64,000 nucleotides of DNA from an uncultured Candidatus Saccharibacteria bacterium (GTDB taxonomy: Bacteria; Patescibacteriota; Saccharimonadia; Saccharimonadales; UBA4665), in assembly GCA_963707285.1 (NCBI GenBank), contig CAVPPA010000005.1, positions 66,180-130,179 of the forward strand, read 5' to 3'. How positions within the stretch are numbered: position 1 is the first letter of the stretch; each line of letters begins with the position of its first letter. This document shows, piece after piece, positions 49,765 to 63,184 of this stretch. A program made the position numbers and the translations under genes. The notes under the pieces were generated by a model. The model saw only the letters and a list, made by a program, of their open reading frames with translations, searched no databases and was not told the DNA's origin.

Positions 49765-50640
49765 ATGCTAGAAGTTGTTGTGCTTATAGTGATTGGATTG
49801 TGTCTTGGAAGTTTTGTTAATGCACTTGTGTGGCGGTTACATATACAGCAGGAAATGGATTCTAAACTTGATAAAAATACTAAGAGCGTTAATAGATTTC
49901 TATTTAGATTTAAAACCGATAACCCTTACTCGATCATTAATGGTAGATCTATGTGCCCTCATTGCCACCATGAATTGGCTATATTCGATTTAATTCCAGT
50001 AATTAGTTGGGTATTATTAAGAGGCAAGTGTCGTTATTGCGACAAGCCAATATCATGGCAGTACCCAGTAGTTGAGCTACTTTTAATGTCACTCTTTGTA
50101 GTTTCATTTCTACTCTGGCCCATGGGATTTAATTCATTAGGACAATTTAGTTTTGTAATATGGTTAGCGATTTTAACTGGTTTCGTTGCACTTGCTGTCT
50201 ATGATCTAAAGTGGTTTTTATTACCAGATCGAATTGTTTATCCATTAATTGGTCTAGCTATCTTCGAAGTTCTATGGAAAGCCACTTTTTTTGGAGAGGG
50301 TTGGAATGTAATTACTCAAGCCTTTTGGGCAGTATTAGCTATTGCCGGGACCTTTTATCTAATATATGTAGTATCTAACGGTAAATGGATCGGTTTTGGT
50401 GACGTTAAACTAGCGATTGTTCTCGGATTGATAGTCGCTAATCCATTTAGGGCATTGCTAATAATATTTATAGCTTCCATTATCGGTTCAGTTATCGCTA
50501 CACCTTTACTTTTAAGAGGCAAGGCAAAAATGTCATCACAAATTCCATTTGGACCCTATTTACTAACAGCAGTAGTACTAGTTGTAATATTTGGAAACGA
50601 TTTCGTTAATTGGTATAACAGTTTTTTCTATTTACGTTAG
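49765..50640 (+). CDS. pilD: prepilin peptidase (A24 family)
   Basis: N-terminal CxxC pairs (CPHC, CRYC), catalytic Asp motifs (LLPD, GFGDVKL) and a polytopic membrane topology. Confidence 0.9.
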   Translation: MLEVVVLIVIGLCLGSFVNALVWRLHIQQEMDSKLDKNTKSVNRFLFRFKTDNPYSIINGRSMCPHCHHELAIFDLIPVISWVLLRGKCRYCDKPISWQYPVVELLLMSLFVVSFLLWPMGFNSLGQFSFVIWLAILTGFVALAVYDLKWFLLPDRIVYPLIGLAIFEVLWKATFFGEGWNVITQAFWAVLAIAGTFYLIYVVSNGKWIGFGDVKLAIVLGLIVANPFRALLIIFIASIIGSVIATPLLLRGKAKMSSQIPFGPYLLTAVVLVVIFGNDFVNWYNSFFYLR

Positions 50641-50678
50641 GATATTTACCCCAAGAAGCTTATGTTATACTTAGGCGC

Positions 50679-51545
50679 ATGAGCAACGGTGATAGTAAAG
50701 TTAACCTCAAAGAGGTCGGCTTTACTATTTTTGAGACTATGATAGTTCTGGCAGTTACAGGTGCATTGTTTGTAGCTATAGCGGCTACATTAAGCGGCCG
50801 ACAGAATGAGGCTGAATTTATACATGCAATTCAGGATGCCCAAGCCCATGTCCAACAGGTTATTAACCAGGTTTCAGACGGATACTACTCGAGCAATAAT
50901 AATTTTAGTTGTACTAATAATAGTAATATTGTAACCATTAATCCCGGCAATAATACACAAGGAACAAACTTTGGCTGTGAACTACTGGGGTCAGTAATTC
51001 AATTTGGAGTATTGAATACATCTCCGGAACAGTATCAAATTTATACTATTGCCGGCCTGCAAGGTTCCACTGCTGGTGCTAACTCACCTTATCAGAACGC
51101 CGATCCCACAGTTGTACAAGTGGGTGGAAATTTTGCTAATTATACTGTTACTAAAAGTCTTGAGTATGGTCTTACAACTAGTAAGATGCAAATTAATAAC
51201 GGCGGTTCAACACCTCCAACGCCCATCGGAGCAGTGGGATTTTTAATGGAGCCAGGTAGTTCAAGTGGAGGCATAAGTGGTTACAATTCTGGGACGCAAT
51301 CTATCGATCTTGTGCCGATCTATAAATCGAATCTTAATCTAGACCCTGCTTCCATGAGTAGTGCAATAGAGGCAAGTTTAAAAAGCCTAAGCGAGTCGTC
51401 TTATGCTTCTATTAATCCTCCCAATGGAGTGCAAATTTGTATGGTAAGTGGAGCTACAAACCAATCGGGGCTTATTACAATAGGAAATTCTAATGGATCG
51501 TTGCTCGCAACATTAAGCATAAAAAGCAATAGGAATTGCTCATGA
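50679..51545 (+). CDS. minor pilin / pseudopilin
   Basis: Class III signal KEVG|FTIFETMIVLAVTG with Glu at +5. Confidence 0.75.
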   Translation: MSNGDSKVNLKEVGFTIFETMIVLAVTGALFVAIAATLSGRQNEAEFIHAIQDAQAHVQQVINQVSDGYYSSNNNFSCTNNSNIVTINPGNNTQGTNFGCELLGSVIQFGVLNTSPEQYQIYTIAGLQGSTAGANSPYQNADPTVVQVGGNFANYTVTKSLEYGLTTSKMQINNGGSTPPTPIGAVGFLMEPGSSSGGISGYNSGTQSIDLVPIYKSNLNLDPASMSSAIEASLKSLSESSYASINPPNGVQICMVSGATNQSGLITIGNSNGSLLATLSIKSNRNCS

Positions 51546-52231
51546 GTAGAATCGATTTACGAACTTTCAATTTTAAACCGAAATTTGGTTCTCAATCAAA
51601 GTTACCGATTGGCTTTACTATTCTTGAACTTATGATTTCTTCGGCAGTATTTGCGGTTGTCCTGCTCATAGTTGCTATTGGGATTATTAGTTTTACGAAC
51701 AGCTATTACCAGGGGATAAATAGCTCAAATGTTCAATCCGTCGCAAGATCTATTATGGCTGAGGTAAGCCAATCTTTAGAATTTAATCAAGGCTTCAATA
51801 ACCTTACAACACAACCCTCATCAGCCGTAGTCGGCTATTGTATTGGTAACACAATGTATTCATATGAATTAGGCCAGGAAGTAGTCAATCCACCTTCATC
51901 ATCGGATCAAGGCGATCATGGACTAGTAGTTAATACAAACTCTTCATGTACTTCAAGTTCTTCACCTAGCATCAGTGACCCTTTACCTCAATCTTCAGAA
52001 GAACTTCTAAATCAGCATATGCGCTTGGGTGTATTTAATATTACACCGCTACCCGGCAACCTTTACAGCGTTCATATAAGAGTAATATATGGTGACAACA
52101 ACGTTTTAAAACCGAATAGTTTGCCAAATTTAGGAGCTGATTGGAGCACCGTTGGTTGTGCCTCGGGACCAGGTTCTCAGTTTTGTGCCGTATCAGATCT
52201 AACTACAACAGTACAAGAACGAATTATTTAA
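51536..52231 (+). CDS. minor pilin / pseudopilin
   Basis: Class III signal LPIG|FTILELMISSAVFAVV with Glu at +5. It overlaps the preceding gene. Confidence 0.75.
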   Translation: MLMSRIDLRTFNFKPKFGSQSKLPIGFTILELMISSAVFAVVLLIVAIGIISFTNSYYQGINSSNVQSVARSIMAEVSQSLEFNQGFNNLTTQPSSAVVGYCIGNTMYSYELGQEVVNPPSSSDQGDHGLVVNTNSSCTSSSSPSISDPLPQSSEELLNQHMRLGVFNITPLPGNLYSVHIRVIYGDNNVLKPNSLPNLGADWSTVGCASGPGSQFCAVSDLTTTVQERII

Positions 52232-52253
52232 TGATTCTATACTATAATAGAGG

Positions 52254-53330
52254 TTGATAAACACTAGAAATATGAAAGACATTAAAAGCGAATCTGGCAT
52301 AGTTTCAATCATGGTAACAATGGTAATGTTAATCGTGATCAGTTTGATAGTTCTCGGCTTAGCTGAAATTTCTCAAACCGAACAAAGAAATACCACTGAT
52401 AGTCAATTAAGCGACCAAGCATTTTATAGCGCTGAAAGTGGCGTAAATGATGCCGTTACAGCGATTGAATCTTTAGTCTCCTCTGGTCAAACTGTACCGG
52501 CTAAACTAAGCTGTACAAACTCTTCTAGTCCACCTTATAATTTCACGGGTATCGTAAATACTGTCTATAACGATTACTATACATGCCTGACAATTAACCC
52601 ATCACCTTCAACACTTAGTTATCCAGTTAACACGCAATCGACAGTTATACCGCTCACATCTTCATCGGCAATAAATAGTATCACCTTAACATGGACAACT
52701 CCCACTGGATTGGGTGCCGGAAATTGTAATATTACGAAAGATCATTTTGTTCCAGCTAATCCAATTAGTAATTGGCCATGTAATTTCCCTGTATTAAGAG
52801 TGGATTTATTAGATGCAAATGGTCAGCTGGAGAGGAATGTCAGTAGCACAACAAATGACTGGTCGACAGATACTGCTACGATGTTTTTCATGCCTACCTT
52901 TGGCTCGGCCGACCCCAACCCATCACTAAATGAAAGGGGTACAGTAGTTGAAGCGCATTGTACCCAAACCATTAACCCTCAGCCAACCTGTTCGGCTACA
53001 ATTAATCTAAGCGGTGGAACGTCCTATTATATGAGGGAAACTGCACTTTATAAATCCGGATCTAGCCTAACGGTAACCGCAAATGGCGGTGCTGTTTCAT
53101 TTAATGGCGTACAGGTTGTCATCGACTCCACTGGAAAGGCACAAGATATACTCAAGCGTATCAGGGTAGCAGTAGATTTAACTGCTGCTAATGCAAATAT
53201 ACTTCCAAGTGGCGCTTTAATTTCGGAAGATTCTGTATGTAAAGAGTATAGCGTATCTGGTAGTTTGTTTAGCATGACCAATTCAGGTATTGCGGGGAGC
53301 GACGGAGACACGCTCTGTTCGCCTCATTAA
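52254..53330 (+). CDS. PilX-like pilus-associated protein (no Glu at +5)
   Basis: Its N-terminal hydrophobic helix SESGIVSIMVTMVMLIVISLIVLGLAE resembles PilX/ComGG-type minor components. It is the last gene of the pilus cluster, and the start may be ATG 52272. Confidence 0.5.
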   Translation: MINTRNMKDIKSESGIVSIMVTMVMLIVISLIVLGLAEISQTEQRNTTDSQLSDQAFYSAESGVNDAVTAIESLVSSGQTVPAKLSCTNSSSPPYNFTGIVNTVYNDYYTCLTINPSPSTLSYPVNTQSTVIPLTSSSAINSITLTWTTPTGLGAGNCNITKDHFVPANPISNWPCNFPVLRVDLLDANGQLERNVSSTTNDWSTDTATMFFMPTFGSADPNPSLNERGTVVEAHCTQTINPQPTCSATINLSGGTSYYMRETALYKSGSSLTVTANGGAVSFNGVQVVIDSTGKAQDILKRIRVAVDLTAANANILPSGALISEDSVCKEYSVSGSLFSMTNSGIAGSDGDTLCSPH

Positions 53331-53351: not shown

Positions 53352-54266
53352 CTAAACGTTTTTATGGTGATATTGTTCGTAGACCTTTTTTAGATGCTGA
53401 TCTGTTACATGGGTATAGATCTGGGTGGTACTGATATCACTATGTCCAAGCATGACCTGGACTGACCTGAGATCTGATCCGTTCATTAGAAGATCGGTCG
53501 CAAAACTGTGCCTTAAAACGTGGGGATGAACATGTTTAGTTATCCCTGCTAACTGGGCATAACGATTGACTAGACGCTGGACCGATCTAGCCGTTAATCT
53601 TTTAAAGTTTCCAGTTCTATCAACTTTTTGACTGCCGCTATAGCGAATAAATAGCGGACTCATGGCATCGTTTCGCTTTTGTAGATAATTTTCAATCCAC
53701 TGGGCGGCTTCAGCACTAATAAATACCGGCCTGTCTTTTTGACCTTTACCACGGACGGTAAATTCCCGAAGTTTAAGGTTAATATGATCTCGATCAAGTT
53801 TTACGAGTTCTGATACTCTTAAACCTGAACTAAATAAAAGTTCTAGTATAGCTCGATCTCGCATCCCAATTAAACTAGTCATATCCGGTTGTTTAAAAAG
53901 TCTACTCAGTTCTTCATTATTGAGAAAGGTGACTTGCTTTCGGTGTACCCGAGCTAGTTCAATTTTTTCGGCCGATAGGGCAGGGATGTTTCGTTTGGCG
54001 CAAAATTTTAAAAAACTTCTCAGTGCAATCAAATGATAATTAACCGTTATTCGTTGTAGCTCATCGGAAGTATTAGTGCCGAGTCGATTGAGCCATAAGC
54101 GCCATTTACGAACTAATTCATCATCGATTTCGTCAACTTTAATTTCACCTGCAAAATCAGCTAATCTGGTTAAGTAATGGTCATAATTAGCAATTGTTTT
54201 TTGGGAACGGTTCTGTTCAATCTCTAAATGTTCTAAGAAATCAGTTTTTGCTTTAGTGAATAACAT
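53352..54266 (-). CDS. tyrosine recombinase XerC/XerD family
   Basis: Catalytic R..HxxR..Y set (RHSFATDLL, LGHSDISTTQIYTHV). TGTTATAAT (minus strand) lies 6 nt upstream of ATG 54266; the ORF is open to 54347. Confidence 0.85.
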   Translation of the reverse strand: MLFTKAKTDFLEHLEIEQNRSQKTIANYDHYLTRLADFAGEIKVDEIDDELVRKWRLWLNRLGTNTSDELQRITVNYHLIALRSFLKFCAKRNIPALSAEKIELARVHRKQVTFLNNEELSRLFKQPDMTSLIGMRDRAILELLFSSGLRVSELVKLDRDHINLKLREFTVRGKGQKDRPVFISAEAAQWIENYLQKRNDAMSPLFIRYSGSQKVDRTGNFKRLTARSVQRLVNRYAQLAGITKHVHPHVLRHSFATDLLMNGSDLRSVQVMLGHSDISTTQIYTHVTDQHLKKVYEQYHHKNV

Positions 54267-54371
54267 AAGCGAATTATAACATTGTGCGACATAACTAGGG
54301 TCATTGCTGATGTCGTTCTGATCTGTTAGAATAGCAACAACTAGCAACTAACATGAGGTTCTTGCATTTTT

Positions 54372-54998
54372 ATGGCTCAGTTACACCCAGCACTTCATTC
54401 TATAAAGTTTCAGCGAACCTTTTGCCTCATTAAACCAGACGGTGTCAGCCGTGGCTTAATTGGTGACATTATTCATCGAATTGAAAAGGCAGGTCTTAAA
54501 ATTGTCGCTCTCAAAATGGTTCACGCCGAAAGAAAATTAGCCGTAAAGCACTATCCAACTGAAGATTTAGCCTGGATTGATCGATTGGGCGAAAAGAGTC
54601 TAAGTAGTTTCGATACACTTAACGTCAAACCGAAAGATGCCCTTGGTTCAGATGACAAAAGAGAAATTGGGACACAAGTCAGTGAAACTCTGGTCGATTA
54701 CTTAACATCAGGTCCGGTTGTCTGTATGGTCATAGAAGGCATTCAAGCTATTGATATGGTTCGAAAATTAGCCGGCCATACACTGCCTTATAAAGCAGAT
54801 GTCGGTACGATTAGGGGAGATTATTCAGTCGATAGTCCAGCTATCGCCAATGCCGAGAGCCGATCAATTCACAATTTGTTCCACGCCAGTGAAAATGAAA
54901 AAGAAGCAAACAATGAGATACATATATGGTTCAAAGATGAACCTATCCATAGCTACCGTAGGGCCGGCGAAGATGTTATGTATGAAAAACACTATTAA
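54372..54998 (+). CDS. ndk: nucleoside-diphosphate kinase with internal insertion
   Basis: TFCLIKPDGV, SGPVVCMVIEG and active-site NLFHASE. At 208 aa it is larger than the usual ~140-150 aa because of extra sequence between KHY and LVDYLTSGP. Confidence 0.85.
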   Translation: MAQLHPALHSIKFQRTFCLIKPDGVSRGLIGDIIHRIEKAGLKIVALKMVHAERKLAVKHYPTEDLAWIDRLGEKSLSSFDTLNVKPKDALGSDDKREIGTQVSETLVDYLTSGPVVCMVIEGIQAIDMVRKLAGHTLPYKADVGTIRGDYSVDSPAIANAESRSIHNLFHASENEKEANNEIHIWFKDEPIHSYRRAGEDVMYEKHY

Positions 54999-55018: not shown

Positions 55019-55093
55019 GTCCCCGTAGTTAAATGGATAGAATAACTCCGTCCTAAGGAGCAGATCTGCGTTCGAGTCGCGGCGGGGATACCA
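55019..55093 (+). tRNA. tRNA-Arg (anticodon CCU), CCA encoded
   Basis: Manual fold: acceptor GTCCCCG/CGGGGAT, anticodon arm ACTCC-GTCCTAA-GGAGC, T arm CTGCG-TTCGAGT-CGCGG and discriminator A plus CCA. It closely resembles E. coli argW. Confidence 0.85.
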
Positions 55094-56886: not shown

Positions 56887-56963
56887 GGGCTCGTAGTGAA
56901 GAGGCCTATCACGTCTCCCTGTCACGGAGAAGATCGCCGGTTCGAATCCGGTCGGGCCCGCCA
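56887..56963 (+). tRNA. tRNA-Asp (anticodon GUC), CCA encoded
   Basis: Manual fold: acceptor GGGCTCG/CGGGCCC, D arm GTGA-AGAGGCCTA-TCAC, anticodon arm TCTCC-CTGTCAC-GGAGA, T arm GCCGG-TTCGAAT-CCGGT and discriminator G plus CCA. Confidence 0.9.
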
Positions 56964-57015
56964 AGCATAAGAATTTTCAATCTATTCTTCGAGTTGATTT
57001 TGATAAGATAATCCC

Positions 57016-57273
57016 ATGCATATTAATGACTGGCGAGACATTGTACTTGCCATAAGCTTCGCAGTCTTTAATATCGCACTTATTCCATCAATTATTAGTA
57101 AACATAAGCCTGCTTTAGGTACGAGCTTAGTTACAGCTACATTCCTAATACCTGGGCTGGTAGTCTACATTAGCCTCTCTCTATGGTATTCCGCTATTAT
57201 GACGGCGATAAACATTAGTCTTTGGACAACCTTATCTATTCAACGCTACCTACAATCCAAGAATGAGGGCTAA
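57016..57273 (+). CDS. small 3-TM membrane protein (PQ-loop/SemiSWEET-like, tentative)
   Basis: 85 aa. The segment SKHKPALGTSLVTATFL resembles SKSAIGNSLVTWSFFAL of the 61371 gene. Confidence 0.45.
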   Translation: MHINDWRDIVLAISFAVFNIALIPSIISKHKPALGTSLVTATFLIPGLVVYISLSLWYSAIMTAINISLWTTLSIQRYLQSKNEG

Positions 57274-57286
57274 TGCTCTGTAATAA

Positions 57287-57320
57287 AATAATTCCACACC
57301 TGTTCAGCTAAGGTCCGCCA
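57287..57320 (+). repeat. island upstream element, motif A copy 1
   Basis: AATAATTCCACACCTGTTCAGCTAAGGTCCGCCA ends 1 nt upstream of the -35 TTGACT. Confidence 0.85.
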
Positions 57321-57321
57321 T

Positions 57322-57350
57322 TTGACTAAATACTACTTTTATGGTAGTAT
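57322..57350 (+). promoter_or_regulatory. sigma70-type promoter of the 57370 gene
   Basis: TTGACT, 17-nt spacer, TAGTAT. Confidence 0.55.
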
Positions 57351-57369
57351 TTTTTATTGGAATAATAAA

Positions 57370-58638
57370 ATGAACAATCAAACTAATAATGAAATAAATC
57401 CAGCCTTGCCTGAGTTGTTTAACTCAAGTGAGTTTCTGAATGACCAGCAATTGAGCACCCTAATTGGCGGTATTGGTAACAACGAAGGGAAAGCCCTTTT
57501 GTTAGTGGCTATGGCAACCGGGGGTAGCGCGTATACATCACGTCCCTTGCATGGGCTGATAACTGGTCTTCCAGGTATGGATAGCGTAGAGGCCGGAAGC
57601 ATCTATACACAAAAAGGTTGGTGTCAGTCATCCATAGGGCCAGCTGGCTTAGTTGAGAACCACGGTTCAGATGGGACTCAAGTAACATCGCTGGGGTTAA
57701 GGCTTGGGGTTCCCCTTGCTGGGTTATTGCTTAATCATGCCGATAAATATGACGTACCGCTCGTAGAGTTATTCGGCGAAACTCGTTCAAGTTCAGAAGT
57801 GCCCTCTCAATTTATAAGACTTAGGATAATGGAAGAGCTCCTGACACATCCAGGGGGGATGCAATTAGGTGATTTAGTTACCTCAACCTATGCATCAAAT
57901 CAAGTTGTAATTGAAAAACAATTAAGGAAGTTAGCAAATGCGGACTTGATTACCTACGATGACTGGGATAGTGCAACATGCCAGATCAGATACGAGGTTC
58001 CATCAGAAAGTCGAAGTAGTTTAGCGGACAAGGCAGGTTTTACCGGGACAATCGCTGAATATCTATTGCAAGCGTCTGAGACGTCTCACGATCAAGTTGT
58101 TAACTATTGCATACAGACAGTGCCAGGATTTAACCAACTTGACCCTAGAGCTCAAAGTGCCAAGGTTTCGGTGGTCATGTTTAATTTAAAGCGTCAGGGA
58201 TTAGTGCAAAAACTTGAGGGCAAAGAACGACCTTTTGAACTTGATGTCTCGTTAACCCCCGAACAATTAGAACAGTGGACCGATTTATGCAATAAACTGG
58301 AGTCTTTCAAGAATCAGGAGCCAGAAGTTTTAGCTAAATGGACTAAGGTAGCTTTTGATTTTATTACCGATCCTGCTAAAGTTAGGCGCGCCTATGAACG
58401 CTTTCGTGACAGCTCTGCTAGGGCGAATCATATTGAAAAAAACTTAGGTAGTATTGTTCTAAATGCTTTACAAGATAGTGGTGGCTCTGCTTCAGTTCGT
58501 GAAGTAGTGAAACTAGCCTCAGACAGACGTGGTAATTCTGTATCGCACTTTGGGGTCGTGAGGGTATTAAACCATCTAGCCGCCGAAGGATTGGTAAACA
58601 GACACCAAGATAAGGTGGTGATGTTTAGCAAGCGCTAA
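57370..58638 (+). CDS. hypothetical protein with at least two winged-helix-like segments
   Basis: About 423 aa from ATG 57370; the longer TTG-started ORF from 57322 would overlap its own promoter. wHTH-like stretches IRLRIMEELLTHPGGMQLGDLV...LRKLANADLITY and VLNALQDSGGSASVREVV...VLNHLAAEGLVNRH. Confidence 0.45.
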   Translation: MNNQTNNEINPALPELFNSSEFLNDQQLSTLIGGIGNNEGKALLLVAMATGGSAYTSRPLHGLITGLPGMDSVEAGSIYTQKGWCQSSIGPAGLVENHGSDGTQVTSLGLRLGVPLAGLLLNHADKYDVPLVELFGETRSSSEVPSQFIRLRIMEELLTHPGGMQLGDLVTSTYASNQVVIEKQLRKLANADLITYDDWDSATCQIRYEVPSESRSSLADKAGFTGTIAEYLLQASETSHDQVVNYCIQTVPGFNQLDPRAQSAKVSVVMFNLKRQGLVQKLEGKERPFELDVSLTPEQLEQWTDLCNKLESFKNQEPEVLAKWTKVAFDFITDPAKVRRAYERFRDSSARANHIEKNLGSIVLNALQDSGGSASVREVVKLASDRRGNSVSHFGVVRVLNHLAAEGLVNRHQDKVVMFSKR

Positions 58639-58686
58639 ATGGCTTCGGTCTCTGGTAAAAAGACTCTTCTAAAGCTTCCTTTAAAA

Positions 58687-58720
58687 AATAATTCCACACC
58701 TGTTCCGCTAAGGTCCGCCA
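58687..58720 (+). repeat. island upstream element, motif A copy 2
   Basis: AATAATTCCACACCTGTTCCGCTAAGGTCCGCCA is 33/34 identical to copy 1 and ends 3 nt upstream of the -35 TTGACA. Confidence 0.85.
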
Positions 58721-58723
58721 TAA

Positions 58724-58752
58724 TTGACATATAGTTGCTAATATGCTATTGT
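58724..58752 (+). promoter_or_regulatory. sigma70-type promoter of the 58760 gene (leaderless)
   Basis: TTGACA, 17-nt spacer, TATTGT. The ATG is 7 nt downstream. Confidence 0.5.
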
Positions 58753-58759
58753 TTAAGAT

Positions 58760-59143
58760 ATGACTACAATAGATTCACAAGCTTTTAATGCACCTGAATT
58801 ACCGTCTGATTTCGATTTGAGTCGTCGTAAGGAAATTGCTCAGGTTCTAGGCATAACACTATTCGAACCTACTAACCTATATGATCACTATCTTATAATT
58901 ACGCCTAATGGTAACCAGCATCTTGAATCTGGGACAACCCTCCAGTCTCTTAGAGAAGAAGGTTTGTCGGATGAAGCTATTGGCGAAAGATTAGAGCAAG
59001 TACTTACCGAACGTAGGGCAAGACTGAGCAATGATTTATTGAAAGCAATTCTGATGTATGATGATGCCAGAGACCCTGATTATTACTTAAATGATCTTCT
59101 TCCCGAACCACCGTTCGGACTTATAGATGGGGTTGATTACTAG
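58760..59143 (+). CDS. hypothetical protein
   Basis: 127-aa acidic soluble ORF with its own promoter. No recognised domain. Confidence 0.45.
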   Translation: MTTIDSQAFNAPELPSDFDLSRRKEIAQVLGITLFEPTNLYDHYLIITPNGNQHLESGTTLQSLREEGLSDEAIGERLEQVLTERRARLSNDLLKAILMYDDARDPDYYLNDLLPEPPFGLIDGVDY

Positions 59144-59174
59144 ATAAACTAAGGATCTATCCTATTATTTAGTT

Positions 59175-59208
59175 ACAATTCTAAAATCCAACTCTAGATC
59201 CCGCCAAT
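59175..59208 (+). repeat. island upstream element, motif B copy 1
   Basis: ACAATTCTAAAATCCAACTCTAGATCCCGCCAAT shares the 18-mer TTCTAAAATCCAACTCTA with 60568-60585. Confidence 0.8.
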
Positions 59209-59230
59209 TAGATACCTTTAAACGATTAAT

Positions 59231-59258
59231 TTGACTGTTGTAACCTTACTAATATAAT
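59231..59258 (+). promoter_or_regulatory. sigma70-type promoter of the 59300 gene
   Basis: TTGACT, 16-nt spacer, TATAAT. Confidence 0.55.
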
Positions 59259-59299
59259 CATAAACAATATTACATATTTCATTGAAAGGTAACACGAAC

Positions 59300-59830
59300 A
59301 TGCGATTTAAGAATAATGGATCAAACAAGGGTGGTTTTATAGACCATACCGCTTTAGTGATTATTGTAGTAGGGGTAGCAATATTAGGTAGTTTCTATTT
59401 GGTTGCAACTCATGCCGCCACTAAAACAGCCGTAATTTTTAGTAACTACCAAACTGCAGTTGATCACAGTTCGAGCACGACCGTAACTTCAAGCTCTGTT
59501 TCAACATTAGATAGTAATCAAAACGTCGTTAGTTTATCTGAAAATCAAAAAGCAGATTTTACCCCATTAAAGGGTGGCGGTGGCTGGTATGACATATCTA
59601 CATGTTACTTCCTAGCGGCACCTGATGGTAATGTTACGGCTCTAATCGGTAACGAATCTGCAACCCTTCAAGTACATGTTGCCCAAAGCCTTAGTTATTA
59701 TGCGAAATATTGTCTTAATGCTCCTAGTTCATCTGGTAGCTATACTAACGATACAGTTGAAAATCTTTCAAGTACTCCCCTATACATCTATCAAGCCGAG
59801 CTGAACTCAGCTTGCAAAACGATGTGTTAA
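59300..59830 (+). CDS. hypothetical secreted/membrane-anchored Cys-containing protein
   Basis: ATG 59300 follows AAAGG. N-terminal TM (ALVIIVVGVAILGSFYLVA), an S/T-rich linker and a C-terminal domain with four Cys. Confidence 0.45.
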   Translation: MRFKNNGSNKGGFIDHTALVIIVVGVAILGSFYLVATHAATKTAVIFSNYQTAVDHSSSTTVTSSSVSTLDSNQNVVSLSENQKADFTPLKGGGGWYDISTCYFLAAPDGNVTALIGNESATLQVHVAQSLSYYAKYCLNAPSSSGSYTNDTVENLSSTPLYIYQAELNSACKTMC

Positions 59831-59863
59831 AAAAGATATCAAAATCTACACACTAGTTAATAT

Positions 59864-59897
59864 AATAATTCCACACCCGTTCAGCTAAGGTCCGCCA
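59864..59897 (+). repeat. island upstream element, motif A copy 3
   Basis: AATAATTCCACACCCGTTCAGCTAAGGTCCGCCA is 33/34 identical to copy 1. A partial CCACACCC recurs at 59921-59928. Confidence 0.85.
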
Positions 59898-59978
59898 ATA
59901 ATCCGCAATTTGTTATTTTGCCACACCCAAACCGGATGTTAGAACTATTTTTGTAGACTAGTCTGTTACCGCTCATGC

Positions 59979-60007
59979 TTGCTATGATGGTACTTCAGAC
60001 CTAGAAT
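59979..60007 (+). promoter_or_regulatory. sigma70-type promoter of the 60015 gene (leaderless)
   Basis: TTGCTA, 17-nt spacer, TAGAAT. The ATG is 7 nt downstream. Confidence 0.5.
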
Positions 60008-60014
60008 TGTTTAA

Positions 60015-60548
60015 ATGGAAAAATTACCCTCCGCAGTTACTAAGCTTGAAAAAGCAGGCATACTAGATATGGTATATGCAAGAATTGCGATCAGAAAAAT
60101 AAGAAATGCCGTAATGGACATTGAAGTTCCCAGATTAATTGATAATTTGGATTTCTGTGTAAGACAATCAAGAGATGTAAGTGCTGTCCTCGAAGAGTAT
60201 CGTAAACGATATGGTTATAGTCCTCACTTAATACCCAGAACTAATGTTAGTCTTTGGAAATCTTCAGATGAAGTGGGTTTATTTTATGGGAGCTCAAACG
60301 GATTAGAATATAGATCTCATAGATTCAGATTTAATTTTAATAGTGGGGGTGGAGTTCAGTATCATAGAGAAGCATATAATGTTGATTTTCAAGCTATGGG
60401 GTCTCAGCCTGTTAATTTAGCTTCTTTAAAAGAAATAGCTAGTCATTCGCAAGCAATAATTGAATTACGTTGGTTGGCATCTCAGATTGCTGGCAAACCG
60501 CCTAATAGTTGGCGTGACGGACCCCCTATTTCCACAGTGGCTTGTTAG
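60015..60548 (+). CDS. hypothetical protein
   Basis: 177-aa soluble ORF with no recognised domain. Confidence 0.45.
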   Translation: MEKLPSAVTKLEKAGILDMVYARIAIRKIRNAVMDIEVPRLIDNLDFCVRQSRDVSAVLEEYRKRYGYSPHLIPRTNVSLWKSSDEVGLFYGSSNGLEYRSHRFRFNFNSGGGVQYHREAYNVDFQAMGSQPVNLASLKEIASHSQAIIELRWLASQIAGKPPNSWRDGPPISTVAC

Positions 60549-60562
60549 AAGATACTTATCGT

Positions 60563-60591
60563 AATTGTTCTAAAATCCAACTCTAAACCCC
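60563..60591 (+). repeat. island upstream element, motif B copy 2
   Basis: AATTGTTCTAAAATCCAACTCTAAACCCC. Confidence 0.8.
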
Positions 60592-60606
60592 ATAAATGAT
60601 GCTTTA

Positions 60607-60635
60607 TTGACTAATAATCAATCTTATGATATTAT
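60607..60635 (+). promoter_or_regulatory. sigma70-type promoter of the 60692 gene
   Basis: TTGACT, 17-nt spacer, TATTAT, with TGA immediately upstream of the -10. Confidence 0.55.
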
Positions 60636-60691
60636 GTATTTAAGATATATTATCTTCTTTAATAATAAAAAGCTAGGATAGAAAGCACAAA

Positions 60692-61216
60692 ATGTCAGAT
60701 TCAGAAACATCGCCACTACAGACTGCTCCTCTAGAGCAAATTACAACCGAACAGGCAACAGAGGCAGGTCGAAATTTTGAAGAACTTTTGGGTAAAAATC
60801 CAAACATAACAGATGTTGTTGTTCTGGTAGGCATACGTGGTCGTAAGAAGCTTGTTCAACAGGAAACGGTTGAGTTTGTGGCAGGTAATTCAAAACTTGT
60901 AGTTGCCCGAAATAGCAATAGTCCAAGAGTAGGAGCCGCACTTTTAAAGAAGGTCACGCAAAGCGAAAGCAACAGTGGCTGGGAAATCTCAGATCAATTC
61001 TTGTTTGATACAACCCAGGGAAGCGTTCTTCGTCTGGGTAGGGATGAATCCGATAAACCCCTTAAATTAGGTGCATTTACACCATTTAACGAAACAGGAA
61101 AAGGTACGCTAGAGACGTTTTTAAGTTCTACGAAAAGTGTCATTGAGGCTAGTAAACGCCCGGGCGCAAGGATTCGAAGCGTAGCTCAAAAAGCTGGTCG
61201 TCTGGTCAGCCATTAA
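60692..61216 (+). CDS. hypothetical protein
   Basis: 174-aa soluble ORF with no recognised domain. Confidence 0.45.
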   Translation: MSDSETSPLQTAPLEQITTEQATEAGRNFEELLGKNPNITDVVVLVGIRGRKKLVQQETVEFVAGNSKLVVARNSNSPRVGAALLKKVTQSESNSGWEISDQFLFDTTQGSVLRLGRDESDKPLKLGAFTPFNETGKGTLETFLSSTKSVIEASKRPGARIRSVAQKAGRLVSH

Positions 61217-61294
61217 AATTCTTGGATTATAATTAATTATTTTATTGTTCACTGCTCTATAATCTATCTTAACTTGATTTAAAAGTTACTAGGT

Positions 61295-61328
61295 ATTAGG
61301 TCCACATCACCAAAGCTAACATCCGCCA
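61295..61328 (+). repeat. island upstream element, degenerate motif A copy 4
   Basis: ATTAGGTCCACATCACCAAAGCTAACATCCGCCA shares about 22/34 positions with motif A, including TCCACA, AGCTAA and TCCGCCA. Confidence 0.55.
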
Positions 61329-61370
61329 ATAAGCTTATGTTTGTAGTTAATCTCTGTTAGTATTTGTGTC

Positions 61371-61673
61371 ATGAGTCGCACATCCTTGTTGCACTTGAGA
61401 AGTAAAGGCAAGCTTGAGAATTACATCTTATATAAAGTCATTTTAGTTATTGCTTTTATCGAACCACTTACGACATCGGGACAAATATATCAAATCTGGA
61501 AGTCGAAAAGTGCCATAGGTAATTCTCTTGTTACATGGTCATTTTTTGCTTTATCTAGCATCATTTGGCTTTCCTATGGCATTAAAATAAAAAGTAAGCC
61601 ACTCATAATTAGCAGTTTATTATGGGCTATAACCGAATCAATAATTATTATCCAAATAATTTATTATTCGTAA
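61371..61673 (+). CDS. SemiSWEET/PQ-loop-like 3-TM membrane protein
   Basis: 100 aa. SGQIYQIWKSKSAIGNSLVTWSFFALSSIIWLSYGI resembles the MtN3/PQ-loop signature. TGTTAGTAT lies 7 nt upstream of the ATG. Confidence 0.5.
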   Translation: MSRTSLLHLRSKGKLENYILYKVILVIAFIEPLTTSGQIYQIWKSKSAIGNSLVTWSFFALSSIIWLSYGIKIKSKPLIISSLLWAITESIIIIQIIYYS

Positions 61674-61776
61674 CACTTACTCTAAAAGCTAACTACAGAT
61701 AAAGTCAATTTGACTTAAAAGATACTATATGTAATTTTAAAGTGTAGTTAAAAATTAAATAAATAATTTACAAGAT

Positions 61777-62727
61777 ATGAAGAATAATTACGGATATATT
61801 CAAGAATCTAGAGAACCGCGCAACTCACCTACCTTTTCGGTTACACTTATTACTGAAGGACTTGCGTTTGGCGAAGGCAATATAACTAGTAGTGTAGAAA
61901 ATCCACAAATACTAAATGATATGGATGAAACTATCCGTAATTCATCTGACATTCTAGTTCAAATTGAGATAGATGATGATGGATGTGGTGACGGGAGAGA
62001 GGTAGTCCGGGTCTACGATCTTAATAGTGAATATAAGCGCAGCCTAAATCGTGCCAAAGTCTTTGGCGGGGCTGTAGCTATGACAGCTGCTATACTGATT
62101 GGTTTAGGAAAAGCCCACGACAAGTCCTTACAAGGAGTTTATATTGACTCAGTAAATACATTAGTCCGCAATGGAATTAACTTTGGCGCTCATACAGATG
62201 AACATGCCCATGGCAATAATTGTGGTTGCGGTGCTATAGACCGATCTCCTGAGGCCTTGGTAGCGATTCTAAAATATGAAGAACGTATCAGAGGAGTTAT
62301 ATCTGAACTAGGGGTTAATTTAAATGGTCTAGACCAAGTTTTTATTAATTTTCGAGACTTTGTAAGAAATGAAATGGCTCAGCCCCAAAAATTTAGCGGT
62401 GGAGAAGTTATTGATCATATACTGTCTGTTGGTAAAGTTGTAAAAAAACTTGGTGGTGAGCATCAAGAGAGGCGAATAATACTGAATCAAGTTAGGCGTA
62501 ATACAATAAATCAAAAATTAATTCGCGATGTTACTCATGGAAGGGGACAGGTATTTGGCATAGACGAGTGGCGACTAGAAGATATTGCTTCAAGTCTGTT
62601 TCCCGAGCAGGACAAATTGCAAAATCAAGCTTTAATTAGTGAATTAGTGTATACATTAGGAATTGCTGCAGTTCTCACTAAAGGTGATTTACCAGTTTAT
62701 ATGATTCAAAGTCTGAATCCTAATTAA
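61777..62727 (+). CDS. hypothetical protein with Cys/His/Asp metal-site-like clusters
   Basis: 316 aa with DDDGCGDGRE (CxDxR) at residues 67-75 and GAHTDEHAHGNNCGCGAID at residues 137-155. I cannot assign a family. Confidence 0.45.
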   Translation: MKNNYGYIQESREPRNSPTFSVTLITEGLAFGEGNITSSVENPQILNDMDETIRNSSDILVQIEIDDDGCGDGREVVRVYDLNSEYKRSLNRAKVFGGAVAMTAAILIGLGKAHDKSLQGVYIDSVNTLVRNGINFGAHTDEHAHGNNCGCGAIDRSPEALVAILKYEERIRGVISELGVNLNGLDQVFINFRDFVRNEMAQPQKFSGGEVIDHILSVGKVVKKLGGEHQERRIILNQVRRNTINQKLIRDVTHGRGQVFGIDEWRLEDIASSLFPEQDKLQNQALISELVYTLGIAAVLTKGDLPVYMIQSLNPN

Positions 62728-62873
62728 TGAAGAAGATATTTTCTATTCAATTAATTTCAGAATATCGGTTAATAATCACCAGGTATTAGACATAAAAGAG
62801 CGGTCTATTGAGTATTTCTGTTATTGTAAGGGTATGTGAAAGTGCTTTAATGGGCTTTATGAGAGGAGCATAT

Positions 62874-63092
62874 ATGGCAAAAGTTGAATCAAATAGTCGA
62901 ATTTATAAAACAAAGTACGTTACAAAAAATGGCGGCGCCGGAGGATTATGGTTATTAGGATTTATTGGCACCTTTATTTATTATATACAAGTTCATTCCG
63001 GCACTTTTTGGTTGGTAGTCCTGGCCTTTTTAAAAGCAATTATCTGGCCGGCAATTATGGTATATCATCTTTTCCTTTTCCTAAAAGTTTAA
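62874..63092 (+). CDS. small 2-TM membrane protein
   Basis: ATG 62874 follows a GAGGAG Shine-Dalgarno at 5-nt spacing; the ORF is open from 62808. Hydrophobic helices GGLWLLGFIGTFIYYI and FWLVVLAFLKAIIWPAIMVY. Confidence 0.45.
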   Translation: MAKVESNSRIYKTKYVTKNGGAGGLWLLGFIGTFIYYIQVHSGTFWLVVLAFLKAIIWPAIMVYHLFLFLKV

Positions 63093-63184
63093 CGTTTTAA
63101 AGAGTTTCTAGTCTATAGTTACCAAATAATTTTGTCAAAAATTACGCTTGAAAAACCTCGATTAAATAATGCTATGCTAGACGC

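Follow-up and report, generated by a model that had tools for sequence, protein, structure and literature searches.

A probable hypervariable cassette island at the 3' end of tRNA-Asp in a Saccharibacteria genome

[quoted passage not shown] The arrangement is common to many related Saccharibacteria and is reminiscent of integrons, not of a co-regulated, operon-like module. Here it is proposed that the cassettes, of about 0.5-1.5 kb and self-contained (each would comprise a promoter and one small gene), are set apart by motifs A and B, boundary repeats some 33 nt long. The tRNA and the genes of the block are as follows:

56887..56963, plus strand: tRNA-Asp(gtc), the array anchor (ARAGORN; Rfam tRNA 61.9 bits), with the 3' end ...GGGCCCGCCA
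56964..56971, plus strand: tRNA trailer AGCATAAG, half of the trailer palindrome AAGC-w-TA-w-GCTT
57016..57273, plus strand: o1 (ORF1), small membrane protein of 85 aa (ORF call, codon usage)
57370..58638, plus strand: o2 (ORF2), 422 aa, several winged-helix domains
58760..59143, plus strand: o3, 127 aa, no family (ORF call, codon usage)
59300..59830, plus strand: o4, 176 aa, N-terminal hydrophobic anchor (ORF call, codon usage)
60015..60548, plus strand: o5 (ORF5), 177 aa, small uncharacterised family (34 representative proteins at E <= 1e-3)
60692..61216, plus strand: o6 (ORF6), ORFan of 174 aa (codon-usage score as high as core genes)
61371..61673, plus strand: o7 (ORF7), membrane protein of 100 aa, SemiSWEET-like below the curated threshold
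61777..62727, plus strand: o8 (ORF8), 316 aa, zeta (cadmium) carbonic-anhydrase-like (PF18484)
62874..63092, plus strand: o9, small membrane peptide of 72 aa (ORF call, public gene call, codon usage)

The public gene calls match all nine ORFs identically, and the codon-usage score of every one is positive in frame and negative off frame, which bears out the original prediction of nine small plus-strand genes after tRNA-Asp. The unusually wide spacers and the AT-richness seen by eye are confirmed as well: the intergenic gaps of the block are 48-184 nt (median 138 nt, compared with 31 nt elsewhere; Mann-Whitney p 5.6e-4), and its GC content of 0.380, versus 0.418 for the rest, is the lowest of all 6.2-kb windows in the 64 kb sequence.

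The products point to unrelated accessory functions, and each gene would be expressed on its own. They comprise small membrane proteins and ORFans together with a surface protein, a winged-helix protein and a zeta-carbonic-anhydrase-like enzyme. The earlier statement that no gene matched a family is wrong for o8, a cadmium/zeta carbonic-anhydrase-like protein whose 436 homologs come mostly from Saccharimonadales; it has the invariant residues C70, H139 and C151 and an AlphaFold2 model (pLDDT 92.6) that Foldseek matches to the CDCA1 repeats with a probability of 1.0. For o7, it is weakened by the SemiSWEET match, itself sub-threshold (NF037969 42 bits, cut-off 100; PF03083 22.5, cut-off 23.7). 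The product of o4, with its hydrophobic anchor and no match in the Pfam search, is predicted to be a secreted or surface protein, and o6 is a true ORFan, with only its self-match among 5.8 billion clusters. The homologs of ORF2, ORF5 and ORF8 stand alone in quite different contexts and therefore give no support to the suggested pathway around the metal-site protein and the SemiSWEET-like transporters; no functional link was found among the block genes.

Allowing at most one mismatch, motif A (TCCACACCTGTTCAGCTAAGGTCCGCCA) is found three times, at 57293, 58693 and 59870 (chance expectation 0), and nowhere outside the block in the 64 kb; motif B has two copies, at 59175 and 60564 (0.16 expected). 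Both motifs are real, as had been proposed, and are block-specific in the 64 kb, and the degenerate fourth copy of motif A was recovered by the profile. The fragment ACTCTAAAAGCTAAC is also present, at 61679-61693 and not at 61676-61690, and is statistically undetectable. Within the window, the A and B repeats are confined to the block:

57286..57320, plus strand: boundary repeat A1, family A (profile E 1.5e-5), ending in GTCCGCCA
58686..58720, plus strand: boundary repeat A2, family A (motif and profile matches)
59175..59206, plus strand: boundary repeat B1, family B (profile E 1.6e-9), ending in TCCCGCCA
59863..59897, plus strand: boundary repeat A3, family A (profile E 5e-6)
59910..59952, plus strand: conserved module after A3 (TTGTTATTTTGCCACACCCAAACCGGATGTTAGAAC), no assigned role
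60564..60595, plus strand: boundary repeat B2, degenerate, CCA end lost (profile E 6e-4)
61294..61328, plus strand: boundary repeat A4, degenerate (profile match at 61290-61328, E 8e-4), ending in ATCCGCCA, then AAGCTTATG
62780..62808, plus strand: weak candidate for a decayed A-type repeat (GGTATTAGACATAAAAGAGCGGTC), sharing direct repeat D12 with the 5' portion of A4 (not significant against the repeat profile)

The repeats decay with distance from the tRNA, from the intact A1-A3 to the degraded B2, A4 and the fragments beyond. Sequence similar to the module after A3 is found after a repeat in L025 and after tRNA genes in L023 and L048.

Families A and B (about 33 nt each) comprise 74 copies at E < 1e-3 in about 34 loci, which are Saccharibacteria metagenome contigs and MAGs gathered by the repeat search itself, so that the frequency of repeats without a tRNA link is biased. 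All repeat copies of a locus share one strand, with a median spacing of 780 nt, roughly the length of one small gene, and a full tRNA gene lies upstream wherever upstream DNA is present in the sequence. A same-strand tRNA is upstream in 21 loci: Asp(gtc), the array anchor in 16 other loci as in the window, Arg(gcg) in four and Ser(gga) in one; Gly(tcc) is a fourth host. Each repeat consists of a conserved T-arm-like body followed by the last 6-7 nt of the tRNA of its own locus and often by the trailer of that tRNA. The repeats end in ...CCGCCA at Asp or Ser, in the ...ACACCA type at Arg (14 of 14 repeats, four loci) and in CCGCACCA at Gly, and the exact match to the host tRNA extends for a median of 7 nt leftwards from CCA and then stops. 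This identity of 6-7 nt is shorter than that of most tRNA-integrating elements, which counts against the island reading. After CCA, the host trailer is copied over 13-22 nt in L064, 8-11 nt in L072 and 34 nt in L053, and the mean identity over the first 14 nt is 7.0 to the own tRNA and 4.9 to the tRNAs of other loci (p 9e-4). The trailer palindrome, found also 3' of many repeats in other loci, follows 9 of the 20 array-hosting tRNAs and none of 31 other tRNAs, and so is no general tRNA processing signal. This anatomy resembles an attR-type junction, in which the arm of a mobile element would be joined to a duplicated target core, and it suggests that the tRNA end and the repeats already in place are the sites at which cassettes are taken up and shuffled by site-specific recombination, perhaps helped by short-homology recombination that follows natural transformation.

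Most arrays place the start of the repeat no more than about 30 nt from a stop codon on the same strand, and the TAG within ATAGTTC often is that stop. This position would also suit a role in the 3'-UTR and in this respect speaks against the island reading. The repeats could accordingly be seen as transcribed, tRNA-mimicking 3'-end elements, like plant-mitochondrial t-elements or the tRNA-linked repeats (TLRs) of E. coli, with CCA-ending mRNA tails processed or protected by the tRNA 3' maturation machinery and the island secondary. [quoted passage not shown] However, the candidate repeat hairpin has no compensatory change (pairing cells 77.9%, compared with 78.4% in shuffles), the A and B copies of the window do not fold (0 to -2.8 kcal/mol, z > 0), and the repeats have neither covariation nor conserved RNA structure. 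In addition, an RNA role explains neither the end specific to the neighbouring tRNA nor the copied trailer, whose palindrome is missing from the non-host tRNAs, and in L053 the repeat adjoins the 5' end of an opposite-strand gene, which makes this explanation rather unlikely. In this locus (a MAG), a clean 41-nt direct repeat surrounds a single cassette of about 990 nt, whose pilin-like gene carries an N_methyl motif and runs on the opposite strand, and a B body lies just inside the distal 41-nt repeat. The TLRs (PMC8144298) are similar to the block repeats in lying downstream of a tRNA gene and copying its 3' end; unlike the block repeats, with their 6-7 nt of tRNA identity, they sit within tRNA/rRNA operons and separate no protein-coding cassettes, whereas each repeat here closes a gene-sized unit.

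The upstream flank (bPH protein, SurA/PpiC-like protein and tRNA-Asp) is kept in L046, L032, L011, L017, L048 and L069, and the arrays of these six loci have no gene in common with the window except for an ORF1 homolog of 46% identity inside another tRNA-Asp array (L069:5648-5914). This presence/absence comparison supports the prediction of an accessory, non-core block. The cassette genes o1, o2 and o5 recur in other arrays or beside other tRNAs. The homologs of o2 are only four, all in different contexts, including the Arg array of L003, L007 and a core context in L008, with A-like repeats 3' of those in L007 and L003, and the o5 homolog P0136 is directly 3' of tRNA-Gly(tcc) and followed by an A-like repeat. 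Breakpoints coincide with repeat edges: in the variant contig L074, homology to the window begins at 59179, the 5' edge of B1, with 99.9% identity from there onward and unrelated sequence upstream, a junction that could have arisen when k-mer assembly joined sequences at a second copy of the repeat, and the common homology of L036 and L046 stops right after CCA.

The repeats could also be passive scars, here decayed partial-tRNA att repeats of ordinary integrase-carrying elements (phages, plasmids, ICE-like) once inserted at the tRNA and since largely deleted, which would constitute neither a cassette system nor a present function. Islands anchored at tRNAs, with partial-tRNA repeats and degraded elements, have well-known precedents, such as the tycheposon-built islands of Prochlorococcus (bioRxiv 10.1101/2020.12.28.424599), and the decay gradient of the window fits. 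Such an origin is nevertheless unlikely, because the repeat body is not tRNA sequence and is near-invariant across loci of unrelated flanks and GC contents of 0.36-0.51, a constancy that random decay would not yield. Moreover, the one-gene spacing is regular, no integrase fragments were found in the arrays, the repeats have no credible matches among 2.9 million viral contigs, and L064 has eight well-preserved copies without a decay gradient. The block does share with the tycheposon-built islands the start at a full-length tRNA gene, the tRNA-3'-end direct repeats between successive insertions, the variable content, the several specific tRNAs as seeds and, in the window, the decay away from the tRNA. 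It differs in its tiny units without integrase or replication genes, in repeats that share only 6-7 nt plus trailer with the tRNA, and in a conserved non-tRNA body that arrays at four different tRNAs have in common.

The promoter-like sites of the block include the following:

57322..57350, plus strand: promoter-like site of o2, TTGACT-17-TAGTAT, with the palindrome TACTAC-N7-GTAGTA
58724..58752, plus strand: promoter-like site of o3, TTGACA-17-TATTGT, 3 nt after A2
59231..59258, plus strand: promoter-like site of o4, TTGACT-16-TATAAT, 11/12 consensus positions
60607..60635, plus strand: promoter-like site of o6, TTGACT-17-TATTAT

Promoters had been described in seven consecutive spacers; the consensus scan supports five (57322, 58724, 59231, 59979 and 60607) and not the rest, and promoter-like sites overall are not enriched (23 found, 21.4 in shuffles). 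The idea of single-gene units holds, as the block genes look separate, each with its own promoter-like site, and each promoter may be used individually. The original prediction had read the nine genes as one co-regulated accessory module; in such a module, A and B would lie upstream of the promoters as UP-like elements or as sites for a common regulator. Consistent with it, about 40% of copies, A1 and A2 among them, have a TTGACA-like -35 box that starts 0-8 nt downstream, the palindromic promoter is confined, in all loci examined, to positions immediately 3' of repeats or 3' of tRNA-Asp (the o2-type promoter is also in L007 and L046), and ORF2 is a winged-helix protein. A module is still very improbable: the distance from repeat to -35 box varies from 0 to >50 nt, terminators intervene after some repeats, and the palindrome is present in one promoter of the window only. 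The motifs belong to a widespread, tRNA-tied family whose 3' ends track the host tRNA, unexpected for a regulator site, and in L053 stand beside an opposite-strand gene; ORF2 has just its four homologs against these widespread repeats, and the block genes, lacking a functional link and with homologs occurring alone elsewhere, never travel together in other genomes.

For the preferred cassette island, the recombinase would act in trans, since the cassettes carry none. No recombinase gene lies inside any array, and neither empty sites nor excised circles were observed, nor any gain or loss within a species, observations that weigh against the island reading. The window has a single recombinase gene:

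53352..54347, minus strand: Xer-type tyrosine recombinase (PF00589 152 bits; XerC/XerD/XerA models 238-262 bits)

This gene is 2.5 kb from the array, with three genes and the tRNA in between, and is syntenic in L048 and L062. Its product scores 131 bits with the integron-integrase model, below the cut-off of 265, and is a candidate for the trans-acting enzyme, the link being positional only; it could simply be the housekeeping dimer-resolution enzyme.

Xer-dependent modules, such as pdif modules and IMEX arrays, are small, recombinase-free units bounded by short sites and moved by the host Xer enzyme, and pdif sites alternate in orientation. The block is similar in its small recombinase-free units and in the Xer-type gene as the only recombinase of the window; unlike pdif modules, its repeats are all direct, its Xer link is positional, and no dif-like 11-6-11 site is recognisable in the repeats. 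Compared with integrons (attC, IntI), the block repeats are not attC-like, having no imperfect palindrome or folded structure, the nearby recombinase is of Xer type, scores below the integron-integrase cut-off and has three genes and a tRNA between it and the array, each cassette seems to bring its own promoter, and a tRNA gene 3' end serves as the primary site. As in integrons, the array is one-directional and made of mostly single-gene cassettes of uncharacterised function, the cassettes, with a family of short conserved repeats between them, adjoin a fixed primary site, relatives differ greatly in gene content, and a tyrosine recombinase gene is nearby on the opposite strand.

The nine small plus-strand genes that follow tRNA-Asp in the window of the uncultured Candidatus Saccharibacteria bacterium, o1 to o9, would be best read as an additive island, in which promoter-bearing cassettes are placed at the end of the tRNA gene and ~33-nt repeats (motifs A and B, with window copies A1-A4, B1 and B2) act as recombination boundaries. 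The next gene after o9 is an MFS transporter gene.

Genes of the block and its upstream flank (window coordinates)
49765-50640, prepilin peptidase (PF06750/PF01478)
52254-53330, PilX_N protein
53352-54347, minus strand, Xer-type tyrosine recombinase, the only recombinase gene of the window, 2.5 kb from the array
55019-55093, tRNA-Arg(cct), found by ARAGORN and Rfam
56887-56963, tRNA-Asp(gtc), found by ARAGORN and Rfam
57016-57273, plus strand, o1
57370-58638, plus strand, o2
58760-59143, plus strand, o3
59300-59830, plus strand, o4
60015-60548, plus strand, o5
60692-61216, plus strand, o6
61371-61673, plus strand, o7
61777-62727, plus strand, o8
62874-63092, plus strand, o9

The public gene calls are identical to all nine ORFs, each of which is a singleton at 90% identity. 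Their in-frame codon-usage scores are all positive (0.04-0.27 per codon, against 0.21 +/- 0.05 for core genes) and the off-frame scores are strongly negative, so o1 to o9 look like real genes. As described in the original prediction, the nine genes are separated by wide spacers, with a median gap of 138 nt against 31 nt elsewhere in the window (p 5.6e-4), and the block is AT-richer than its flanks, its computed GC content of 0.380 being below that of every other 6.2-kb stretch of the window. The two motifs are also real: A has three near-exact 28-nt copies where 0 were expected and B has two copies where 0.16 were expected, none of them outside the block. The further fragment ACTCTAAAAGCTAAC had been misplaced; it lies at 61679-61693 and is statistically not significant. 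Promoters had been proposed in seven spacers, of which five match a simple scan, but there is no overall excess of promoter-like sites. Nor does the block have more terminators than expected (2 against 4.2 in shuffles), and an Rfam search of 54-64 kb found the two tRNAs and no other RNA family.

The exact motif A had no match among GTDB representative genomes, which therefore include neither the genome of the window nor a near relative bearing these copies. The first link to other arrays, that is, tRNA-anchored series of genes separated by repeats, was the JGI contig L003, which carries an o2 homolog with 69% identity. In this contig, tRNA-Arg(gcg) is followed by an array of small unannotated plus-strand genes, where each unit runs from the gene to a ~30-nt repeat, often a terminator, and then a promoter; one of its repeats (AGTTCGAAAATCCGACTCTAGTCACACCA) is plainly homologous to motif B of the window (AATTCTAAAATCCAACTCTAGATCCCGCCA). 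A degenerate pattern of the B core matched 38 stretches in metagenomes, ~25 of them true family members, and a second scan, of genomes, matched 26, including ~12 from metagenome-assembled genomes (MAGs) titled Candidatus Saccharibacteria, Saccharimonadales or Patescibacteria group. The remaining matches (~13 of 38 and ~14 of 26) were chance occurrences in unrelated taxa and were ignored. Profiles of family A (consensus AAATAGTTCCAAACYTNTTCCRCTAMGGTCCGCCA) and family B (consensus ATAGTTCGGAAATCCGACTCTATGTCCCGCCA) were built from the repeat copies; at E < 1e-3 they count 74 copies in 34 loci, which were gathered with the repeat as bait and a few of which are duplicated between the metagenome and genome collections. 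All copies lie on one strand in every locus, with a median repeat-to-repeat spacing of 780 nt (interquartile range 639-1395 nt), about one small gene. Within the sequence covered, a same-strand tRNA lies upstream in 21 of the 34 loci: Asp(gtc) in 16, Arg(gcg) in four and Ser(gga) in one. Eight direct B repeats follow tRNA-Asp in L064, and six repeats follow tRNA-Arg(gcg) in L063. In viral contigs, the A and B cores had 0, 0 and 2 matches in the respective scans, both of the latter by chance (one contig has GC 0.68, and the other match is inside a packed coding region), and without a credible match a phage attP origin is unsupported. L016 (Ga0182031_1387934) was excluded as a probable mis-assembly, apparently a palindrome of the L014 locus joined at boundary repeats; arrays assembled from short reads may often be broken or misjoined at the repeats, and contig L073 begins inside A1.

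In its body, the repeat is similar to a T-arm whose loop is widened (GTTCGGAAATCCGAC against GGTTCGAATCCGG); the body is the same whichever tRNA hosts the array, and the final 6-7 nt are those of the host tRNA. Repeats of L003 end in ...CACACCA, as does its tRNA-Arg (GGGTACACCA), and those of the window in ...CCGCCA, as does tRNA-Asp (GGGCCCGCCA). ACACCA-type ends are present in 14 of 14 repeats of the four Arg loci and in none of the other repeats. Read leftwards from CCA, a repeat is exactly identical to its host tRNA over a median of 7 nt (range 3-9 nt), whereas the tRNA-linked repeats (TLRs) of E. coli are identical to the 3' end of the upstream tRNA gene over 18-19 nt (PMC8144298). An unplanned test of the match came from P0136, a homolog of o5, which lies directly after tRNA-Gly(tcc): the A-like repeat behind it has the end CCGCACCA, as does that same tRNA. 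In several arrays, the trailer of the host tRNA is also copied to the right of CCA, over 13-22 nt in L064, 8-11 nt in L072 and 34 nt in L053, and the first 14 nt after CCA have a mean identity of 7.0 to the tRNA of their own locus against 4.9 to those of other loci (p 9e-4). The trailer palindrome AAGC-w-TA-w-GCTT, in either orientation, is present after 9 of the 20 tRNAs that host arrays and after none of 31 others, and it therefore belongs to the repeat unit rather than being a signal of tRNAs in general. Such a structure, in which a conserved arm adjoins a duplicate of the target core (tRNA end plus trailer), is that of an attR junction left by integration at the 3' end of a tRNA gene.

The copies of the window do not fold (0 to -2.8 kcal/mol, z > 0), and the lone candidate stem, a hairpin in B, has no covariation or compensatory change in 42 copies. 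With neither covariation nor folding, both a structured tRNA-like RNA and an integron attC site were rejected; what is conserved is thus the primary sequence, which would suit a DNA site recognised by a protein.

The original prediction took the block for a co-regulated module, in which the repeats would be operators of a shared regulator or UP elements. A TTGACA-like -35 box is indeed found 0-8 nt after CCA in ~40% of copies (some other copies have a terminator hairpin in between), and a palindromic promoter type occurs only after repeats or the tRNA, as detailed below. This reading fails, however, because the spacing from repeat to -35 box varies from 0 to >50 nt, the block genes do not co-occur in other genomes, and the repeat ends match the tRNA. 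The palindromic type, TACYAC-N4-10-GTRGTA, overlaps the -10 box and is found at 57331-57350 of the window as well as in L014, L025, L029, L036 and L046; in all loci examined it is present only directly after a boundary repeat or tRNA-Asp, in the window being that of o2 alone, and the inverted repeat may be an operator. Also, a conserved stretch after A3 (TTGTTATTTTGCCACACCCAAACCGGATGTTAGAAC, 59910-59952) is like the post-repeat sequence of L025, and tRNA-Ser(gga) of L023 and tRNA-Asp of L048 have trailers that resemble it.

Six loci (L046, L032, L011, L017, L048 and L069) conserve the upstream flank of the block, which consists of bPH protein, SurA/PpiC-like protein and tRNA-Asp and, farther away, of tRNA-Arg(cct), NDK and Xer. 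The arrays of these loci have none of the window genes, with the exception of an o1 homolog at a different position in L069. Homologs of o2 occur in an Asp array (the window), an Arg array (L003), L007 and a core context without repeats (L008). The contig L074, from run ERR11523645, is 99.87% identical to window 59170-61448 and has a different gene upstream; the identity starts at TTCTAAAATCC, which is the 5' edge of B1. Similarly, the homology between L036 and L046 covers the last ~50 nt of a gene plus the repeat and ends right after CCA. The simplest case is L053, a named MAG, in which two direct copies of a 41-nt sequence (CCCGCCA and 34 nt of trailer and terminator) enclose ~990 nt with a pilin-like gene, which has an N_methyl motif and is encoded on the opposite strand; a B body lies immediately inside the distal copy. 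These observations are evidence that the repeats probably mark recombination boundaries. No excised circle and no empty site was found among the loci gathered with the repeat as bait. In L074, the place of o3 upstream of B1 is taken by a partial protein (L074:1-504, Logan ERR11523645; at least 167 aa), Ser/Thr-rich and seemingly secreted, which has no homolog among the loci collected.

The frequent position of the repeats at stop codons, and the analogy with the TLRs of E. coli, would agree with a tRNA-like 3'-UTR element, but such an element does not explain the specific match to the host tRNA, the copied trailers or the geometry of L053, and it is at odds with the lack of structure in the repeats. 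Nor do the repeats fit passive scars of larger integrated elements, a reading that the general literature on tRNA islands, e.g. tycheposons (bioRxiv 10.1101/2020.12.28.424599), would favour: their non-tRNA body is near-invariant across unrelated loci, they recur with a one-gene periodicity, and integrase remnants and viral matches are absent.

In the most economical reading, small promoter-bearing cassettes would insert at the tRNA 3' end and at existing repeats, and new insertions would push older cassettes outwards. Of the window repeats, those near the tRNA (A1-A3 and B1) are intact, and B2, A4 and later fragments are decayed; L064 has no such gradient. Recombination between 30-40-nt repeats after natural transformation would be an alternative route to the same pattern. 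No recombinase was found in any array by phmmer searches with three queries, namely the Xer protein of the window, XerD of E. coli and a serine recombinase annotated by Pfam; XerD was used as a pre-filter only, and the recombinase match was then verified with Pfam and NCBIfam. The Xer-type protein of the window (53352-54347) scores 131 bits against TIGR02249 (integron integrase, cut-off 265) and 238-262 bits against Xer models, and the order Xer, NDK, tRNA-Arg(cct), bPH, PpiC, tRNA-Asp is syntenic in L048 and partly so in L062, L046 and L069. It could be a housekeeping enzyme, and it is possibly a candidate trans-acting recombinase of the cassettes. In a more distant relative, a large serine recombinase (L008:232-1563) adjoins a tRNA-Ser(cga)/tRNA-Arg(gcg) pair, and that genome has a variable region after tRNA-Arg without A or B repeats.

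The array is one-directional and made of single-gene cassettes of variable content with a repeat family between them, as in integrons; however, it has no adjacent IntI, the nearest tyrosine recombinase being of Xer type and 2.5 kb away, and its repeats are unlike attC sites, which are imperfect inverted repeats folding into a hairpin with R''/L''/L'/R' boxes. Similarly to att-repeat islands, it starts at a full-length tRNA gene (in the window and 21 of 34 loci), and direct repeats of the tRNA end bound the inserts (6-7 nt shared plus up to 34 nt of trailer; 41 nt in L053), but the element-borne integrase of such islands is absent. It also behaves like a tycheposon-type tRNA island, again without an element-borne integrase. 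The array works like an integron and a tycheposon-type island yet fails the defining tests of each, and searches of the accessible literature found no description of such arrays in Saccharibacteria or Patescibacteria. It is proposed here only tentatively, as a rather doubtful possibility, that a Saccharibacteria lineage has a dedicated gene-cassette capture platform, integron-like but independently evolved. Such a platform would use the tRNA gene 3' end as primary attachment site, the ~33-nt pseudo-tRNA end as cassette-borne site, promoters brought by the cassettes themselves and a trans-acting recombinase, possibly the syntenic Xer-type enzyme, and would supply surface or accessory gene variation to reduced-genome episymbionts.

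Saccharibacteria have tiny genomes and live attached to host bacteria. They are thought to be poor in classical mobile elements, and their gain and exchange of accessory genes is poorly understood. A repeat-punctuated tRNA cassette array present in many MAGs would be a concrete mechanism by which strains come to differ, among other things in pilin-like and surface proteins that matter for host attachment, and the A and B repeats would be a simple sequence signature for locating the flexible gene pool of the lineage. If a dedicated or Xer-type recombinase drives the arrays, they would represent an independent invention of the integron principle. Genetic work in Saccharibacteria could also use the array as a site of integration.

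Pfam, NCBIfam, PHROGs and PADLOC yield little for o1 to o9, and PHROGs and PADLOC gave neither defence nor phage families in the block, except for a weak regulator match of o2. The block had been described as lacking any family that could be named with confidence, but o8 matches a known family, and o7 does so weakly. The 436 homologs of o8, named mostly from Saccharimonadales MAGs, include many annotated as cadmium-containing carbonic anhydrase; PF18484 is a precomputed match in most of them and matches o8 of the window with an E of 1e-4 and 22.5 bits, under the gathering score of 29.2. The structure model of o8 (pLDDT 92.6) matches the zeta-class carbonic anhydrase CDCA1 repeats in Foldseek with probability 1.0 (7bez, 3bob and 3uk8, target-normalised TM 0.54), and residues C70, H139 and C151 are invariant in 33 homologs. 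Thus, o8 is predicted to have the CDCA fold and the Cys-His-Cys metal site of a zeta-class (cadmium) carbonic anhydrase. PDB sequence searches, even profile-based, found nothing for o8 or o2, and the fold search alone linked o8 to known structures. In a relative, an o8 homolog with 61% identity is placed after the ATP synthase operon, so o8 is not tied to the block. SemiSWEET-like transporters had been named among the products; o7 appears similar by its scores, which are below the curated thresholds (NF037969, 42.1 bits, cut-off 100; PF03083, 22.5, cut-off 23.7). The o2 protein has several winged-helix domains, for which the fold search hits single winged-helix domains only, with no global structural match, and it has four homologs in total. 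The o5 family is small (34 representative proteins), and o6 has zero relatives among 5.8 billion protein clusters. The N-terminus of o4 (KGGFIDHTALVIIVVGVAILG) resembles a prepilin signal in which the conserved Glu5 is absent, and the protein has no match in a Pfam search. Because related arrays have pilin-like proteins in their cassettes (L053), the island may supply pilus or surface variation. Type IV pilus genes are located just upstream of the block (49765-53330). Two separate parts of the nucleoside-diphosphate kinase gene at 54372-54998 match the NDK domain, and there is an insertion or extension, an arrangement unusual for the family.
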